Positions 33,001 to 45,000 of a stretch of DNA of 64,000 bases are shown here, one piece after another. Source of the DNA: Phormidesmis sp. (lineage in GTDB: Bacteria; Cyanobacteriota; Cyanobacteriia; Leptolyngbyales; Leptolyngbyaceae); assembly GCA_965248535.1 (NCBI GenBank), contig CBDFJR010000005.1, positions 896,001 through 960,000 of the forward strand. Direction: 5' to 3'. Within the stretch, counting starts at the first letter, position 1. The number at the start of each line of letters is the position of its first letter. A program made the position numbers.

Positions 33001-36000
33001 GCTGAAAAAATAGTCTGTTCTAACTCTGGTATGTCGATAAATCGACCGTTGATCGCGACTCGCACCCAGTCGGGGCGGTGCCGATGACAGCGATCGGGCA
33101 ACCCCAACAGCACATAGACCGCCGCTAAAGAGTCGCTTTCTTCAGAAACGGGCACCTCTAGAGTGGTTTCTTGCAAGTCTCCAATCTGCACGCCTCGCAG
33201 AATTTGGGGCAAGATTTTGCGAGCCGTGTCGCCCGCCCAAACGTTAAACCAGTCTCGATCGCTTTGCTGGACTTGCCAGGTGACTTGGGGGTGACTCAGC
33301 GCAATTTGATGAATGATGGACTGAACCGAGCGAATCTGCTGCGCGATCGGGGGCAACCCCTGCCGCCGGGCCAACCAATGGCCAAATAACTGATCGACTG
33401 TGACGATCGTGCCGGGCGCGATCGCGGCTGCCTCAATCTGAAGGGGTGATCCTTCCGGGCTATAAAGCAGTCGCCAGCCTTGAGTTGTCGCGACGGGACG
33501 GCTGATAATCTCTAGTTGCGATAGCTGTGACAGGCTGTGGAGCGCTTCGCCCCGAAAACCGAGGCTGCGAATATTCCACAGGTCTTGGCGATCGTGAATT
33601 TTGCTCGTGGTGTGGGGCAAGGCAGCTTGTTTTAGTGTTTCTAGATCCATGCCTGCTCCATTGTCGGCGACGCGCACGCGCCACTGGTCAGCCCAGAGCG
33701 ACACCATAATCCGAGTTGCCCCAGCGTCGATCGAGTTTTCTACCAATTCGCGCACCACGGCAGCCAGAGAGTCGATCACTTCTCCGGCCGCGATTAAATG
33801 CACGACTTCAGTAGGCAATGGCTGAATGTTAAACCCCATCCCTCTAGTGTATCGAATTGATTAATCTTGTTCTGCATGAACTGGCTTCTTATGATCAAAT
33901 CGAACAGTTACGCAATCATCAAATCGATATTGGCTTTTTCCATAAACACAACTTACAAAACGCTTAAAGAGGATAGCGAGTCTTTTTCTGACACTCTGGT
34001 TCTTCATGAATCACTCGTGCTTGTCCTCCCGGAGAAGCATTTCTTAGCTAAAAAGACGAGTGTTTCACTCGCAGAGCTTAACGGCAAGGAGTTTGTTCTA
34101 CCACCGCACACCTTACTTCGTGGCTTACGCGATAAAATTGATCAACTTTGCATCAGCGCTCACTGTAAGCCAGTCATTGTTTAAGAGGCAGCCTGGATAA
34201 CAACTGTGTTGAGTTTGGTCGCTAGGGATGGGTGTTTCAGTGCTTCCAGCTAATGTGAAAAACCTTCGACGGACTGGGTCGTTTACCGCGATATTCAAGA
34301 ATTCTCTCCAGTGTTAGAAATTGTTGCTGTTAGGAGAACTCACAATCAGTCAACCGTTCTAAGGAATTTCCTCGAAGTTGTTGAGGACTTATCCAAGTAC
34401 ACTCACCGCTTCTAAGAAATGGACTTTTAGGTCTCCGATCGCGTCAGCGATATGATGAAGTTATCCACTTCACGGGACAGGGGGACTGTTTGGATGATTC
34501 AGGTTGAATTTACTGAGCAGATGATTGAGGAGTTGAAGTACTAACGCGCATTTGAACTTAATCGAACGGTTATGGCGATTTGTGCGTAAAGAATGTTTGT
34601 ACTCTAGATATTATGCTGATTTCTCTGCCTTTAGAAGGGCCATTTCAACCTTGATGGACACAGCGCACATCAACAAACACGAGCAGCTCAAAAGCCTGAT
34701 GAGTTGGCAGTTTCAGTCCTTTAAGAAAGTCCAATTCTTAGCCGAGTAGGGTACATCAGGGTAATTAGCCTCAATTTTTCAGGTACTACAACACTCAATC
34801 AAAAAGCTTGAATACCCTGCTCACACTGGATTTCGGCGACATAACGACCCCGTTCACCCGCCGCTAGGAACCTTTTGGACTCACCGACTCACTTGATACG
34901 GTCGGTGTGCAACGGGATTGTCATTCGATGCTTCTACTCAATTTTGGATTGTCTCCAGTGCTTCATCTCCTCATCAGTAAAGTGACTAACTAAATCCCGA
35001 TACATTTTTTCAATTGCATCTGCATTTAATCCTTCCTCTTCTGCCCAGACTCGACGCTGCCCTAACATTGCGTGAAAGCGTTCAGGTGCTTTAACGGTAG
35101 TTTCACTCGTCTTGAATTTAGAGGCAGCTTTGACATATGCGAAACGCTGACCAAGTAGAGCAACAACTTGACGATCTAACCGATCAATTTCGGCTCGAAT
35201 ATCCGCCATATTTCCACATTGATTAGGTGTCTTCATAGTTTGCAAAGTTGAGTGATGAGGCTAGTTTTCAACTTGAATCGAGAGTTCACACAACACTGGA
35301 AAATTCACCTGTGTTTTGAAGACTACCCCAACCCGCAAACTTCGCCTTCATGAAGTTCGGGGCATTATGATAAAGCAAGCAGCGATAAACTTTCATCTGC
35401 ATGAAATAATTTGATCGCTTCAAAACTCTGACGTATAAAATTCTCAACTTGCCATGTTGAACAGTTTCCCAAGCGAAGCCAAATAACTTTTGGTGGATTG
35501 CCAAATACTAAGCTCAAATCGTGCATATCCGCCTCTTTTGAGACAATCATCAAATCGTTGTCTTTTGCATAATTCCAAACGATTGGATCGATTGTTGCCT
35601 TCATTCCCACATCTCGAACCTGAAGCGAATTTAGGAAAAGATCGTCCAGACGGTTCGGTAACTTTGGCGACAAGTTTTCATCAAAAAGTAATCTTATGCA
35701 GATAATGGAGGAATCATTAACCGACGCTCACGGGCAGCAGCATAAGCAATACAGGCTTTTAAGTCTTCCCGCGTCAGATCGGGAAAATCGTCAAGAATTT
35801 CTGCTTCAGTCATCTCGGAAGCTAGGTGCTAGAGTACCTCATAAACCGTAATTCTTAAACCACGTACACAAGGTTTCCCACCCCGTTTATCAGATTCAAT
35901 TGTGATAAAGTTTTGGTAGCTCATAGTTAAAATCACCTTCATTAAATAGCTCTATTATAAGGCTTCGTCAGTCACAATCAGCACCAACAGAGGCTTTTTA

Positions 36001-42000: not shown

Positions 42001-45000
42001 GTTGTACGTCGGACGGGCATAAATGGATCTTGAAGACCAAATTTCATGACTTCTTTCAGTTGATCATCCGCAAGCAAATTAAACAAATTAGCTATAGTAG
42101 AGCGAACTACAATGTCATGACTGCCTATGCAGTGGAGTACGATTTGGTATGGCTGCAACAGCTGATGATCGATGGTTAAGTGCAGGCAACAACGCGCCAC
42201 AAGGGGATTAGCACTTGTGCACCCATCTACAACTTTCGCTTTATTCTCTCCACTAAGTAGAAACGATTCAACGGCTGTGATTAGCTCGCTATGATCGTCT
42301 CTATAACAATTCTCAAGATGATAAATATTGGGCAGCGCATCGATAAACGCCAATGCGTTTTCTTCGATTAACAATTCTTTAAGTGCTGTATATGAAGCAG
42401 ATCTTACCTGTGGAACCCAATCATTTGCCCGTTTAATGAGTATAGGAAGTGTGATCGAAGTGCCAACCAGCCCCAATTGACGAACTGCCTTTTCTCGTTC
42501 ATAGCCGTTCCAACTATCTGCCAGTTTCAGAAGCTCATCGATACTCTTCTGCTTGTAGAACCATTGATGCCACTTTTTCAAAAGCCCTCCTCGACCCACT
42601 GATGTTGAGAAAGCTAACTACTATTTCTGCCGTTTGAACTCCTATCAAACAGGATAAATGCCTCTCTCAGGGAAATTATGCTGTATGCAAACCGGATAAC
42701 GCCCATTATTTTAGGAATTATACTGAATTTCCACAGGATAACTCTCCGATTTCGGGTAATTATACGGAATGGCACTCAGGTTTTTCGATTCTAAGGGAGC
42801 CAAAAGTAAATTGTCTCGTTCCGATGAATCAGTCATGGCGCTGAGTCGATCGAGTCCCTGCCGTTGCTCGACTGGAACATAAATTAGGGAGAAGTTACGA
42901 TCGCGTCCCTCTCCCTCAAAAAGTCAGCATTCCAAAAAACAAAAAACTCTTGTACAATACACCGCAGTGATGGAGTTGTGCCCCGGAAATCTGATCGGCT
43001 AAATCAGACTCCGAGGACTTCCATCCCTAGTTAGACCAATTAACTCAGGAGGCGTTCATGATTGTACACCGTCGGCTTTGCTATGGGATCTTGAAAGGCT
43101 GGAATCAAGATCCTGCATACAGTTTTCACCCCAACCAAATGTCTGAGAGATCCGTGTTTTTGTCCTCTTTAACTTAACTAAGAGGACAAAAACATGGGAG
43201 TTAGGACGATCGTGCCTAGCTCGATTTCGTTCACCGTTGAGTTGCGATGCTCAATCGAAAAGCGTTATCGAGTTAGCGTGGTTTTGGATTTACAAGAGCG
43301 TTATCTTTTTGTGCCGTCTGGCATTCTCGTGAATGTTGGCGATCGCATTGAAGAGTTCGTCTCAGAACTGAGTGAGATTGCGTCTAATCAACTGGCATTT
43401 CTGAAGTGGGATGACACCAGTGATTTGACCACAGAGTATCAAGTTGTTCGAGTGTTGCCTGGTTATCAGGTTGAACGTTCTTTAATGAAGTTCAACATTG
43501 TTCTGGGTAATGGTGCACTGATTCAAGTAGAGGAGTTGCACAACAAAACGACGATTCAACTGTAGGACGGTGAGTTAGGGAGTCGTCAATATTTGAGAAA
43601 CGCTCCCTAACTTTAGACTTCTCGTTTGGTCATCATCAGATCGTGAAGTGACCTTAGCATCGCACGCTCTGAGCAGAAAATTTGATTCCTGACTTTTGGG
43701 GTGAATCCAGGTTTATACTGACAGGCATCGTGATCGGTTTGCCCTGTGAGTTCGACTTCAAACCCTAGATTAGCGCTTAAATGGAGCATCCAACCCCGGT
43801 TGCTGTTGTCTATCTTTTTGGCGGGGTTGGTTGCTGTCTTGCTGCCAGGCTGGTTTCATTGGGCAACTCGCCTACTGTGCATTTGGGACACGGGCATGAT
43901 TAGCTTTTTAGGCTTATCTTGGTGGCTGATGCTGAATGCCACCCCTGATTCGATGCGCCGTCATGCTCAACAAGAAGACGCTGGGCGTTTGATGATTCTC
44001 AGCTTGATTACGGCGGCGGCTTGTGCAAGTTTGTCGGCGATCGGGTTCATTTTGCACGACAAAGGGGTTAATAACCAACTGCTAGTTTTGCATCTGGCCC
44101 TATCAGTTACCACAATTGTGGGGTCTTGGCTGTTGGTGCATACCATTTTTGCTTCTCACTATGCCCACGCCTACTATAAAACCGGAAAATCGCTGAACGA
44201 ATGTAAAGAAGACGGCTTAGATTTTCCGGGAGATATTGAGCCAGACTATTGGGATTTTCTCTACTTCTCGTTTGTGATTGGGATGACGAGTCAAACGTCA
44301 GATGTAGAGGTGACCTCTCGCCAGATTCGACGGCTCTCACTGACAATCAACATTATGCATGGTGTGCTGTCGTTTTTCTTTAACACGACGATCGTGGCGA
44401 TGACCATCAATATCATATTGCGGAACCGTCTCATGGGTTTCTGTTAATCTGGGAGCTTGCCCCCCGATCCGGTTCGCCTTGTAGGAGATCGGGGTTTTGT
44501 TCAGAATATAACGGGCAGGTAGGATGCTTTGGCTTTCATCTCTTGGGAAAGATGTGATGAATATCGAAGTCGGTTTCGGCAAGTTTGGGTGCTGACTAGC
44601 AGGGCAGCACTGTTACGTGGAAATGCCCGAACCTGCCCTTAACCCACTTGGCTGCCATGCGGGTTTCAACGGCTCCTCCATAAAGCTCTCCCAGAATGCC
44701 ACACCAAAACCAACGGGCAAGTTTGTCATAGATCTTGGGCTGAAGCCAGTCGTCGCCCAATAGAGCTAAAACGGCAGCAAGCGGCACAAGTTGAGTGCTA
44801 TAGGGCAGGTCGCGGGTTGAAAAGAAGGATTCTTTACGGAGAAACTTTGCGGCTTTCCAAAAGCCCTCAGTGAGCTTGGGTTGCCATTGCTGGTAGGCAG
44901 CTAAGGGTAGAGACAGAACTGCTTCACGCTTGGCGCTGACCCCTGTGACTTGCTTGCCTGTTTTGCCTAATAGAAGATCTGCTTGACGCTTTTCCCAAGT

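Follow-up and report, generated by a model that had tools for sequence, protein, structure and literature searches.

An integrase-less cassette array with a retained integrase-proximal junction within a dispersed attC network of Phormidesmis sp.

The window analysed here, a stretch of 64,000 nucleotides from contig C5 of Phormidesmis sp., carries at 33861-43612 an array of attC sites and gene cassettes that is, with high probability, a CALIN retaining its integrase-proximal junction, on which integrases encoded elsewhere would act in trans, with excision and re-insertion of cassettes. The genome as a whole contains two complete integrons together with CALIN and SALIN elements, which is a known kind of organization in an unusually dispersed form.

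Organization of the window array

The array (33861-42618) comprises five attC sites, whose bottom strand is the plus strand of the window, and six cassettes with all genes encoded on the minus strand and directed away from the junction at 42613-42618. All five sites, including one split by an intron, were found where the genome-wide survey's note had placed them. The features, with the junction and module that follow the array, are listed below; R1 is the covariance model described in the next section.

33861..34838, minus strand: distal end, past the last attC; remnant of a cassette, adjoining mutL
33867-34184, plus strand: ORF in the distal remnant, LysR-type fragment (Pfam)
34398-34753: 356-bp insertion in the distal remnant, ends TA..TA, with a weak DDE_3 fragment (Pfam)
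34839..34926, plus strand: attC S1, last site of the array (nhmmer 7e-16; R1 4.2e-15, 73.4 bits)
34927..36029, minus strand: cassette 5 (Pfam)
34934-35245, minus strand: cassette 5, chorismate mutase type II (Pfam)
35365-35673, minus strand: cassette 5, DUF5615 (Pfam)
35697-35927, minus strand: cassette 5, DUF433, with an in-frame stop (Pfam)
36030..36115, plus strand: attC S2 (R1 2.4e-13, 66.7 bits)
36085..36954, minus strand: cassette 4 (ORFs, Pfam)
36085-36330, minus strand: cassette 4, 81-aa ORF overlapping S2
36314-36613, minus strand: cassette 4, BrnT toxin (Pfam 1.7e-29)
36641-36883, minus strand: cassette 4, 80-aa orphan
36955..37034, plus strand: attC S3, 5' part (R' box, L', loop, L'' to ..ATTGT; nhmmer 1.5e-13; R1 2.8e-7)
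37035..37734, plus strand: 700-nt group II intron without an ORF, in the S3 bottom strand and antisense to the cassette genes
37735..37739, plus strand: attC S3, 3' remainder (end of the R'' box, TGGGC)
37747..38943, minus strand: cassette 3 (Pfam)
37747-38130, minus strand: cassette 3, PIN toxin (Pfam)
38127-38366, minus strand: cassette 3, Phd/YefM-like antitoxin (Pfam)
38375-38857, minus strand: cassette 3, GNAT acetyltransferase (Pfam)
38944..39031, plus strand: attC S4 (R1 8.5e-16, 76 bits)
39032..41190, minus strand: cassette 2 (ORFs, Pfam)
39038-40249, minus strand: cassette 2, 403-aa protein with a weak CHAP match (Pfam)
40457-41005, minus strand: cassette 2, 182-aa protein, taken as a membrane protein from its sequence
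41191..41275, plus strand: attC S5 (R1 9.9e-13, 64.3 bits; single-strand fold z = -3.2)
41276..42617, minus strand: cassette 1, integrase-proximal
41283-42599, minus strand: cassette 1, 438-aa HEAT-repeat protein (Pfam HEAT_2 1.4e-13)
42613..42915: type A junction, candidate attI (GCTAAC at 42613-42618, then a conserved stretch of about 300 bp)
42916..43612, plus strand: core module (promoter-like site, leader of about 200 nt, ORFs, hairpin)
43058-43177, plus strand: module, 39-aa mini-ORF
43194-43565, plus strand: module, 123-aa ORF
43574-43611, plus strand: module, hairpin past which the copies diverge

With three toxin-antitoxin pairs, a GNAT protein and orphans, the cassette content is typical of chromosomal integrons. 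The toxin-antitoxin part of cassette 5 shows 85.6% identity to a cassette of the array at C5:792335 and 82-84% to the congeners G001 and G003, and copies of cassette 4 at 70-72% identity occur in G001 and within an array of G006. Paralogous cassettes are also shared between different arrays of the genome. At the distal end, the remnant is 97.8% identical, in inverted orientation, to C5:353271-353812 within another array, and the segment 34398-34753 is skipped by contigs of three sequencing runs. The R'' box of S1 is degenerate (GTCATTC). Part of the cassette system is decaying, as seen in the in-frame stop of the DUF433 gene and in nine intron-split sites genome-wide.

The attC site family

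An nhmmer search seeded with four window sites and iterated on the whole genome to convergence (E<=1e-3) returned 49 attC-type sites, which fall into 25 loci at a 5-kb gap, 13 of them with a single site; at E<=1 it gave 64 rows, partly overlapping opposite-strand matches. Trained on 38 intact sites, the covariance model R1 produced 52 matches at E<=0.01, corresponding to at least 51 distinct sites with 150 of 1075 first-look candidates scored. The union amounts to at least 54 sites in 26 loci. The dispersed attC network proposed in the genome-wide survey's note is thus upheld by our own profile and covariance searches, with higher counts than its 46 sites in 23 loci. Its statements on orientation also stand: no mixed-strand locus exists among the 25 loci from nhmmer or the 26 of the union, and at 44 of the 54 sites the strand opposite to the site holds the longest open frame of the adjoining 700 nt. 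Its site consensus survives as a family defined by profile and structure, not as a literal 10-mer, which matches the window five times (at most one mismatch) versus 3.8 expected.

The sites are about 86 nt long and show the defining anatomy of attC: TAAC/GTTA boxes, a stem supported by covariation, a spacer that stays unpaired and, on the 3' (R''-L'') arm, bulged bases. Of the bulged bases the C is invariant, and the T, like the G that follows AAC, occurs in at least 90% of the 38 aligned sites; the definitions of EHB, UCS and G-after-AAC given in PMC2727003 agree with these sites. Under the named structure, 83.9% of the cells are paired, versus 27-38% in controls with the 3' partners shifted by 1-3 columns, and the covariation score is 0.44, versus 0.06-0.10 for these controls. 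Compensatory changes are present in 11 of 14 L-stem pairs, none of 500 shuffles reached the observed values, and RNAalifold independently recovered the same L stem and bulges. R1 found matches in all 31 cyanobacterial genomes sampled, representing at least 13 families. All attC and integron features that can be examined computationally were found, which supports the identification of the repeats as attC sites.

Could the repeats be palindromic intergenic repeats, or transcription terminators after small genes, and not recombination sites? They do lie at the 3' ends of genes and are present in genomes without intact intI, and as single strands the individual sites fold only modestly better than shuffles (z -1.1 to -3.4). 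However, the conserved asymmetric bulges, the unpaired spacer and the TAAC/GTTA boxes are unlike terminators, and no terminator-like site was called within 42400-43700. Moreover, many genomes display the canonical divergent layout of intI and array, the interspecies breakpoints fall at AAC, and nine sites carry a bottom-strand group II intron, as attC-targeting introns do. We regard a terminator or palindrome origin as extremely improbable.

Integron integrases

Both intI genes reported by the survey exceed the curated TIGR02249 cut-off of 265 (467.9 and 466 bits), and no further gene in the genome does. Their products are full length and share 69% identity (218 of 317 residues), close to the 68% given earlier. 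IntI2 aligns with the solved integron integrase 2A3V over residues 11-319 (E = 9e-93) with one single-residue gap, and the alignment spans the stretch of 2A3V that we take to be the integron-specific insertion. Both genes are divergent from adjoining arrays of the same site family, and 40-nt tandem repeats lie upstream of intI2 as well as of an intI of G002. In other genomes, R1 sites are located just upstream of intI with the same strand label (G006:C13, G009:C20 and C47, G010:C1 and C3, G018:C8, G024:C5, G025:C1 and G002:C38). Within the genus, intI forms a decay series from intact through frameshifted (G001:C150) and a pseudogene with three stops (G006:C13:405690-406145) to absent. Meanwhile, G007 and G008 have 26 and 44 sites, respectively, without an intact intI, indicating that sites can persist without a resident integrase.

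The integrase-proximal junction and the 123-aa module

The survey is right that an integrase accompanies only two loci, but the picture is incomplete, since 11 more loci retain the integrase-proximal junction without intI. The one new feature is this conserved junction, found at 13 of the 26 loci, together with the repeated module with a 123-aa gene that follows it at 11 of these; among the 11 loci lacking intI, the module adjoins in 10. The type A form of the junction has eight exact-motif copies and one variant, each adjoining cassettes and 85-91% alike. All nine start exactly after TAAC with unrelated sequence on the left, and congeners share this left boundary. Four promoter-like sites in the type A junction face the cassettes. 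An integrase profile search found no intI fragment at the window junction, and the 40-nt tandem repeats are absent from the type A junction, so that we call it a candidate attI.

The leader of the module has two hairpins with loops that vary among copies. The genome holds 17 copies at 83-96% amino-acid identity, one of which abuts the stop codon of intI2, and the module is directly 3' of intI in G002 (twice), G003, G004 (twice), G006 and G001. The 11 modules within 6 kb of an attC locus are all integrase-proximal, none being distal, and are divergent from the cassettes. Similarly, R1 sites lie on the integrase-proximal side of 9 of the 11 modules in G006, in one case with an intact intI and in another with the intI pseudogene.

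Such copy numbers could also mean that junction and module together are a mobile or copy-spreading unit with an attI-like site, which lands elsewhere in the chromosome and seeds arrays at each new place, so that dispersal would reflect multiplication of platforms and not loss of intI. Modules are numerous in every congener as in this genome, far outnumbering intI, and bring a promoter-like site and a terminator-like hairpin of their own; the long form reads TAAC against unrelated sequence at either end, and 5 of the 17 copies stand without any array, one of them beside a tRNA gene. However, the short form has no TAAC left end, the module showed neither a transposase or recombinase nor terminal inverted repeats, and Pfam gives no domain for the 123-aa protein. 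That modules adjoin the 3' end of intI throughout the genus speaks for an ancestral intI-module unit, and in G006 an intI pseudogene lying between a module and its array shows loss in progress. A spreading platform is therefore an improbable explanation, and loss of intI from former integrons is preferred.

Group II introns in attC sites

The intron in S3 matches Rfam RF02001 (127.8 bits) and RF01998 (63.7 bits), begins with GTACG and ends with ..CCCGAT. All nine genomic copies are inserted in attC sites at the identical position, and eight of them are ORF-less, near-identical and 700 nt long. In the ORF of the remaining copy Pfam detects reverse-transcriptase and maturase domains and nothing further; this reading frame, the only one for an intron protein, appears split over two frames. 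Empty sites exist: G007 has an intron-free copy of S3 in which ..ATTGT is joined to TGGGC.., and contigs of sequencing runs X1 and X2 skip 700 nt at this joint. Because the intron cuts off the R'' box from the remainder of each site, all nine should be inactive. Group IIC-attC introns such as S.ma.I2 (PMC3001079) likewise insert in the bottom strand of attC, a likeness that we draw from sequence features; they differ in that eight of the nine copies here lack an ORF.

Cassette exchange and the state of the array

The GNAT-Phd-PIN cassette with S3 recurs in G007:C538 at 85% identity, where it abuts an integrase-less junction and is the first cassette after it; in the window array it is the third. 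The identity to G007 stops at the R' box of S4, directly after GCCCAAC. A contig of run X4 carries 39129-41197 (cassette 2) with 25 differences and diverges at 41197, which is the S5 crossover. In these alignments, whole cassettes are exchanged between species exactly at the AAC crossover. The sequencing runs were compared as contigs, which cannot reveal rare excision products. Among the 150 best matches, the two junction-proximal cassettes had none in seven congeners, whereas distal cassettes did. Elsewhere, a single cassette of about 762 bp (C2:1958619-1959380; an attC and a 146-aa frame) is present in G000 and G003 and absent, with contiguous flanks, in six of seven congeners. Since 57 nt of non-host sequence separate the host TAAC from the R' box of its attC, insertion in one simple crossover is only hypothetical.

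A more serious alternative, though still an unlikely one, is that the orphan loci are dead relics of earlier integrons or of rearranged arrays, where recombination has ceased, the window array being a fossil held by its toxin-antitoxin cassettes while the integrases serve their own arrays, if any. The intI decay series, the broken DUF433 gene, the nine intron-split sites, the 356-bp insertion and transposase fragments at the distal end, the divergence of type A copies (just 85-91% alike) and the genomes rich in sites yet devoid of intact intI would all fit. Against this, the pairing of the sites has been preserved through compensatory changes, all loci use one site family and two intact integrases exist. 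In addition, between G000, G007 and the source of run X4 the same cassette changes its rank and its neighbours, the breaks falling exactly at the crossover, and in the above 150 best matches junction-proximal cassettes are strain-specific while distal ones are common to congeners. We therefore favour a CALIN open to integrase action, which may continue at present.

According to the mechanism that we propose, IntI1 and IntI2, encoded on contig C2, would act in trans on the window array by binding the folded bottom strand of attC at its TAAC/GTTA R box, unpaired spacer and bulged C and T on the 3' arm. Cassettes would be excised through attC x attC recombination and re-enter at the TAAC junction of the platform, where type A would serve as attI, or occasionally at other chromosomal sites. 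With re-insertion at the junction, the newest cassettes would stand at the junction end and the older ones be pushed outward. The network has three components, namely the two complete integrons, the 11 junction loci without intI, most simply explained as descendants of integrons after intI loss, and the single cassettes and short arrays elsewhere.

Comparison with known systems

The homogeneous, lineage-wide attC family recalls the VCR sites of the Vibrio cholerae superintegron (2A3V VchIntIA-VCR complex), and as described in PMC2727003 the VCR shares the bottom-strand fold, R box, unpaired spacer, two R''-L'' bulges and variable loop. Both systems have toxin-antitoxin cassettes in arrays, and the integrase found here aligns with 2A3V over its full length. 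However, the superintegron is one very large array, in contrast to the many small arrays and single cassettes here. The Vibrio bulges are T and G, unlike the C and T of our sites, and the VCR family belongs to one genus, whereas the family of ~86-nt sites spans at least 13 cyanobacterial families. Ghaly et al. 2021 (PMC8352920) provide a Cyanobacteria-specific attC covariance model in a paper that concerns taxonomic assignment of cassettes and not genome architecture. Such a model shows that cyanobacterial chromosomal attC sites resemble one another enough, in sequence as in structure, for a model specific to the taxon, and the R1 matches in 31 of 31 genomes agree; the R1 family is probably the family of that paper. 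Isolated cassettes outside att sites resemble attG secondary-site insertions as outlined in 10.1101/2022.09.11.507474, and one of them is polymorphic between congeners at conserved flanks here. That C2 cassette differs in its junction, which is no clean crossover at the R' box of the cassette itself, and its insertion by IntI is our reading.

In the CALIN/complete-integron scheme, two loci combine intI with attC, the window array has at least two attC without a nearby intI, and the 13 single-site loci (5-kb gap, 49 strong sites) correspond to SALINs. CALINs beside complete integrons in one genome, and mostly non-resistance cassettes, also conform to the scheme. Cury et al. noted that they were unable to search for attI and that 95% of CALINs have no nearby intI pseudogene. 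Each published origin of CALINs (intI loss, rearrangement, off-target insertion) is exemplified in this genome. Since complete integrons, CALINs and SALINs are named and a Cyanobacteria attC model has been published, the kind of system is not new. What departs from the scheme is the high number of about 26 separate loci in one 5-Mb genome, and the 11 intI-less loci with the conserved junction, 10 of which also have the lineage-specific gene module.

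A dispersed family of attC sites

Reading and alignment of five candidate stretches revealed a repeated unit of ~86 nt in window positions 34400-44000. On the + strand, TAAC and three bases that do not pair precede a stem arm; a loop of ~40 nt separates this arm from its complement, which has extra bases and is followed by three more unpaired bases and GTTA. The assembly comprises 5.03 Mb in five contigs, of which the window represents G000:C5:896001-960000 (G000, this genome; C, contig). An nhmmer search that started from four window sites and was repeated on the whole genome until it converged found 49 sites at E≤1e-3; at E≤1 it returned 64 rows, partly overlapping hits on opposite strands. 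When grouped with a gap of 5 kb, the 49 sites form 25 loci with one (13 loci), two (6), three (3) or five (3) sites. A covariance model, R1, was then built from 38 uninterrupted sites (alignment A2). At E≤0.01, R1 gave 52 matches in the genome representing 51 distinct sites, one of which was matched on both strands; this count is a floor, with 150 of the 1075 first-look candidates scored. The union of both searches, including weaker sites supported by their context, amounts to 54 sites in 26 loci.

The 46 sites in 23 loci listed in the genome-wide survey's note were thus reproduced and slightly exceeded. That all sites of a locus point the same way also holds, since none of the 25 loci formed by the nhmmer sites has mixed strands. 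The small genes had been placed on the opposite strand, and in the 700 nt next to a site the longest open frame is indeed on the strand opposite the bottom strand for 44 of the 54 sites, by a crude measure that is nonetheless far from an even split. The literal consensus word of the survey, GTTGTTATGC, fared differently: it is not enriched in the window (5 matches at ≤1 mismatch vs 3.8 expected) and was abandoned as an uninformative marker. The attC family is defined by profile and structure instead.

Structure of the attC sites

DNA folding of single sites gave z values of only -1.1 to -3.4, which is too weak, and covariation was therefore used instead. In A2, 83.9% of 785 cells form standard pairs; sliding the 3' partners by 1-3 columns lowers this to 27-38%. 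For covariation, A2 scores 0.44 vs 0.06-0.10 in the slid controls, and changes on both sides of a pair occur in 137 cells vs 25-39. None of 500 column shuffles reached the observed values. RNAalifold, run without a supplied structure, recovered the inner stem and the bulges identically. In this inner stem (L), 89% of the cells pair, with compensatory changes in 11 of 14 pairs.

On the bottom strand, the R boxes were required to read RYYYAAC (R') and GTTRRRY (R''), inverse and pairing. The AAC (columns 11-13) pairs with the GTT (columns 92-94) in 33-34 of the 38 sites, and the four outer R-box pairs are variable among these sites, as would be expected of the segment exchanged between cassettes. 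The central spacer comprises 3 nt (mostly GTT) opposite another 3 nt (mostly GTT), without Watson-Crick pairing. In at least 90% of the 38 sites, the base after the AAC is a G, which is a feature of most attC sites according to PMC2727003. The 3' arm carries a bulged C (column 82) that is invariant in all 38 sites, a bulged T (column 74) in at least 90% of them, and a third bulge (column 79) in one subfamily. The corresponding bulges of the Vibrio VCR, as given in PMC2727003, are T12'' and G20''; the identity of the bases thus differs here, but the architecture does not. Following the attC description of Bouvier et al., the + strand of the window is the bottom strand and the - strand is the cassette strand.

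Taken together, the sites have the inverse R boxes, the L hairpin kept in structure, the unpaired spacer, the extrahelical bases on the 3' arm, the position 3' of a gene and the uniform orientation of attC sites. Rfam scans of the window and four further loci at the gathering threshold matched group II intron families only.

Integrases and complete integrons

Both integron integrase genes of the survey, given there as 68% identical, score well above the NCBIfam TIGR02249 cut-off of 265 bits, which was never passed in 14 control genomes: intI1 (C2:161487-162425, +) reaches 467.9 bits and intI2 (C2:1131581-1132513, -) 466 bits. The proteins are 69% identical (218 of 317 residues), and no third TIGR02249 match was found in the genome at E≤0.001. 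IntI2 aligns over residues 11-319 with the solved Vibrio integron integrase 2A3V (E = 9e-93, one gap of 1 residue), while chains of XerD and XerC align with it only in parts. The stretch covered by the 2A3V alignment presumably includes the integron-specific additional domain.

Upstream of intI1, the attC sites lie at C2:156763-161187 with the + label and the genes on the - strand; those of intI2 lie at C2:1132822-1140505. Both genes therefore have an array of the common attC family directly upstream, with a divergent cassette strand, which is the canonical layout. The boundary between cassettes and junction is TAAC| at these loci, and 40-nt tandem repeats are located upstream of intI2. The two loci accordingly qualify as complete integrons with a putative attI. 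Just upstream of intI and with the matching strand label, R1 sites were also found in other genomes (G002:C38, G006:C13, G009:C20 and C47, G010:C1 and C3, G018:C8, G024:C5 and G025:C1).

The array in the window

With five sites in 34839-41275 and both intI genes on another contig (C2), the window array is a CALIN, i.e., a cassette array without intI. Its parts are as follows.

Features of the window array (window coordinates). Cassette order is read on the - strand, outward from the junction at 42613-42618; the attC sites have their bottom strand on +.
Cassette 1, - strand, junction-proximal: 438-aa HEAT-repeat gene; ends in S5
41191-41275, +: attC site S5
Cassette 2, - strand: 182-aa protein (a membrane protein as judged from sequence) and 403-aa protein with a weak CHAP match; ends in S4
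38944-39031, +: attC site S4
Cassette 3, - strand: GNAT, Phd-like antitoxin and PIN toxin; ends in S3
36955-37034 and 37735-37739, +: attC site S3, in two parts
Cassette 4, - strand: 80-aa orphan, BrnT and 81-aa ORF; ends in S2
36030-36115, +: attC site S2
Cassette 5, - strand: DUF433 (in-frame stop), DUF5615 and type II chorismate mutase; ends in S1
34839-34926, +: attC site S1
33861-34838: distal remnant without a terminal site; adjoins mutL

The two particulars singled out by the survey in this array, an attC site split by an intron and a 123-aa module at the end, are both present in the window. The distal remnant has a counterpart of 97.8% identity within a cassette of a different array. 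It is interrupted at 34398-34753 by an insertion of 356 bp, which ends in TA..TA, contains a weak DDE_3 fragment and looks like a small non-autonomous transposable element. This insertion is missing in the contigs of three sequencing runs (X1, X2 and X4), and a fourth run, X3, has a longer form there (799 extra letters). In cassette 5, the antitoxin-like DUF433 gene (35697-35927, -) contains the in-frame stop and its partner DUF5615 is intact.

Two contig joints that skip most of the array, 34921->42911 (X1) and 36113->42614 (X2), were discarded, their sides being only 32 and 22 letters long with 85% likeness; they probably stem from paralogous loci or other strains. Array parts without cover in the X3 and X4 contigs are no evidence of absence. 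GC skew of the two large contigs was too weak (cumulative range ~0.1-0.2) to place the origin or terminus and so to orient the array relative to replication. The window locus has one flanking gene in common with the complete integron of the congener contig G002:C58 (DUF1345, 81% identity; 4.9 kb extra between), which, on this sequence likeness, is only suggestive of orthology.

Group II introns in attC sites

Site S3 is split by a group II intron, whose domains were detected on the + strand at 37148-37520 (Rfam RF02001 and RF01998). The counterpart of S3 in the congener G007 is without an intron and reads ..ATTGT|TGGGC.., which fixes the intron boundaries at 37035-37734; the same skip of 700 nt is found in contigs of X1 and X2. 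The genome has nine copies of the intron, and all nine are located inside attC sites at one common position, after ..TTGT of the R'' box. Eight copies are near-identical, ORF-less and ~700 nt long. The ninth (C2:1673021) is diverged; its reverse-transcriptase (RVT_1) and maturase (GIIM) domains lie in a 325-aa frame from which the first 29 profile positions are missing, the N-terminal part being in a different frame. At this locus (L038 4512-5917, C2:1673511-1674916), the reverse transcriptase/maturase frame begins at profile position 30 and a 172-aa frame overlaps it upstream. A frameshift in the only protein-coding copy is thus probable, in which case this assembly would contain no intact helper for the eight ORF-less introns.

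Group IIC-attC introns are described in PMC3001079 as group II ribozymes in the bottom strand of attC, antisense to the cassettes. The window intron fits this description in position and strand and is a candidate member of this clade.

Junctions and the 123-aa module

The ORF at 43194-43565 encodes a 123-aa protein and belongs to a repeated module with 17 genomic copies (83-96% amino-acid identity). In all copies, the module core has a promoter-like site and a leader of ~200 nt, followed by a 39-aa mini-ORF and the 123-aa ORF; the copies diverge beyond a final hairpin. Upstream of the 123-aa ORF (42916-43190 in the window), the leader hardly varies among the 17 copies, apart from two hairpins whose loops are different in nearly every copy; one of these hairpins has the arms ..AGTTA / TAACT... 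It is followed by the mini-ORF (43058-43177) with a Shine-Dalgarno-like AGGAGG motif. The leader has no Rfam match at the gathering threshold and resembles either a structured RNA with a regulatory role or a palindrome to which a protein binds. For the 123-aa protein, 406 homologues were found; the best 120 are all at least 82% identical and bear only the name 'hypothetical protein' of Phormidesmis. It matches no Pfam family, an Atlas feature search gave only leads (scores ≤0.77) and no useful neighbour, and its AlphaFold2 model (mean pLDDT 45.4) is too poor for a fold search.

Two types of junction precede the core module. The type A junction, an extra stretch of ~300 bp (from 42613 in the window), is present in nine copies, and in all nine it starts directly after TAAC, with unrelated cassette-bearing sequence to the left. 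Such a left boundary is the signature expected of cassette exchange at a fixed crossover, and the junction is a candidate for the role of attI. Neither Tandem Repeats Finder nor a repeat search found tandem or direct repeats in the type A junction, and three repeats of ~42 nt that had been seen in it by eye were dropped for this reason.

The type B junction is common to intI1, intI2 and the locus C5:797643, with ~190 nt identical in the three copies. While the two integrases share only 69% identity, the type B sequence is the same beside both of their genes, and its third copy lies at an integrase-less platform. It contains an attC-like hairpin of 126 nt (C2:161062-161187, C2:1132822-1132947 and C5:797630-797755), a diverged copy of which occupies the same place in G007. 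Either this hairpin belongs to attI, or it is a first cassette that has no ORF and is fixed. At intI2, type B is followed by a 40-nt repeat (3.6 copies; L041 2616-2758, on C2) and then by the start of intI2. At G002:C58, the TAAC| boundary is likewise followed by 40-nt repeats (2.9 copies; L042 1974-2090) and then by intI. A perfect palindrome, TACGGAAAnTTTCCGTA, lies beside the repeats of intI2. Both the repeats and the palindrome upstream of intI are candidates for the places where the integrase or a regulator binds attI in this genus.

The core module directly adjoins the intI2 stop codon. Among the congeners, a module lies directly 3' of intI in G002 (twice), G003, G004 (twice) and G006, and also directly 3' of the frameshifted intI of G001. 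At C5:797643, the upstream region is as at intI and runs into the core module, with exactly the intI reading frame absent. In this genome, the module is found on the integrase-proximal side of 11 of the 26 loci, always divergent from the cassettes, and never on the distal side. A recognisable junction is present in 13 of the 26 loci, counting intI1 and one partial copy of type A; those of the orphan arrays can still be recognised because of the adjacent marker module. In G006, R1 sites were found on the expected side and strand at nine of 11 modules; one G006 module lies beside an intact intI, and another beside an intI pseudogene with three stops, which is located between module and array. 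The simplest reading of these loci, where intI is intact, frameshifted, interrupted by stops or absent, is that an ancestral attI-intI-module unit repeatedly lost intI. A less likely rival reading is that the platform itself multiplied, in favour of which stand the 17 module copies.

At L038 6744-7772 (C2:1675743-1676771), an insertion sequence with a DDE_Tnp_1 transposase separates the partial type A junction from the core module that belongs to it, and L038 2440-3072 holds another transposase fragment; insertion sequences contribute to breaking up these loci. An array-less module copy at C5:1266194 (- strand) adjoins a tRNA-like sequence (C5 ~1266300-1266470, read from the alignment).

Cassettes as probable mobile units

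The cassette with GNAT, Phd and PIN, together with S3, is 85% identical in G007:C538, where mutL is 86% identical. The similarity stops exactly at the AAC in S4's R' box; beyond this point G007 has an integrase-less junction, vs S4 in the window. The rank of this cassette, counted from the junction, is thus first in G007 but third in the window. Window 30500-47500 has 203 matches in seven congeners; the 150 best of them include relatives with 70-89% identity for each of cassettes 3, 4 and 5, vs none for cassettes 1 and 2, which are nearest the junction. Such a contrast in sequence is the age gradient that would be expected if new cassettes enter at the junction. In a contig of 3765 nt from X4, cassette 2 is present with 25 differences and the match stops at 41197, the crossover of S5; the contigs are at low depth, and this breakpoint lends weak support to cassette movement. 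Together with the boundary at the AAC, it is indirect evidence of recombination by an integron integrase. The DUF433/DUF5615 pair has a copy with 85.6% identity in the array at C5:792335, and several other cassettes have paralogues in other loci.

Two single sites were compared with the congeners. The site at C2:1958671 is part of a unit of ~762 bp, in which an attC site is combined with a 146-aa frame on the opposite strand. This unit is present in G000 and G003 and absent in six of the seven congeners, where the flanks are contiguous (8-11 nt apart or overlapping). On the host side, TAAC is located at the stop codon of the upstream gene. Before the R' box of the cassette there are 57 nt of non-host sequence, and ~10 nt of the empty site have been replaced; a simple crossover is not established here because of this foreign sequence. 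Another single attC site, C5:1631247 (L046, C5:1628000-1634500), is flanked by two sequences that six of the seven congeners have on separate contigs. G007 has a small piece of the right flank beside the left flank, and an intI-module pair lies ~5 kb from the right flank in G002. This single cassette may mark a rearrangement breakpoint.

Distribution among cyanobacteria

R1 was also applied to 31 genomes, i.e., this genome, seven congeners, 11 genomes of the same family and 12 of other families in the class. Sites at E≤0.001 were found in all 31, with 1 to 101 per genome, each number being a floor, and one attC family thereby spans 13 cyanobacterial families. Dispersed sites also occur in single-contig genomes such as G025. 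Because the sites are present in all sampled genomes, and dispersed in single-contig ones too, the dispersed family is a property of the class and not of this genome. An intI gene above the cut-off was found in only 17 of the 31. Four genomes (G007, G008, G017 and G020) have 19-44 attC sites each and no intI above the curated cut-off, some of these assemblies being incomplete (82-92%).

Comparison with known integrons

The dispersed integron is real, and its interpretation as such in the survey is right. The element is of a known kind, unusually dispersed. Complete integrons, In0 and CALINs were defined by Cury et al. 2016 (PMC4889954), where Cyanobacteria are among the hosts; the same paper proposes off-target insertion, intI loss and rearrangement as origins of CALINs, which are restated by Ghaly et al. 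2021 (PMC8618304). Cury et al. further report that half of the CALINs are in replicons also encoding IntI, and that CALIN cassettes might still be excised by an integrase elsewhere. Single cassettes without intI (SALINs) were defined by Loot et al. (bioRxiv 10.1101/2022.09.11.507474), according to which 622 genomes have more than one and insertion occurs at non-att sites. A Cyanobacteria-specific attC model was built by Ghaly et al. 2021 (PMC8352920), and the main text of the IntegronFinder 2 preprint does not mention cyanobacteria. A full-text literature search turned up no article that has integrons of cyanobacteria, or attI platforms lacking an integrase, as its subject, although supplementary tables may list such genomes; in the literature found, Cyanobacteria figure only in lists of integron hosts.

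The origin of integrase-less clusters and their exchange with complete integrons have been in question since their first description, as PMC4889954 and Loot et al. indicate. Phormidesmis offers an unusually readable case. Its attC family is homogeneous, two integrases are intact, the marker module makes the junction of about ten orphan arrays recognisable, and intI is seen in a series of decay states. From one species to another, cassettes take a different rank and different neighbours, the change falling exactly at the crossover, and one single cassette has empty sites in relatives. A tentative and rather unlikely extension is that the integron of the genus might be a distributed system, in which about ten integrase-less platforms (attI-type junction and 123-aa module) would be served in trans by one or two intI genes elsewhere, many small arrays would take up and keep cassettes and pass them to each other, and the module or the whole platform would increase in copy number and give rise to further arrays. 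If this were true, many CALINs would be working parts of an integron network and not debris, and the genus would offer every stage needed to watch CALINs arise. In any case, the genus is well suited as a natural system in which to study the origin of integrase-less arrays and their possible continued link to the integrases. Two observations go beyond the literature found, namely that about half of the loci have a conserved junction and module, and that intI shows a genus-wide series of decay states; the value of the case lies in a model system and in the platform and module, rather than in a new mechanism.
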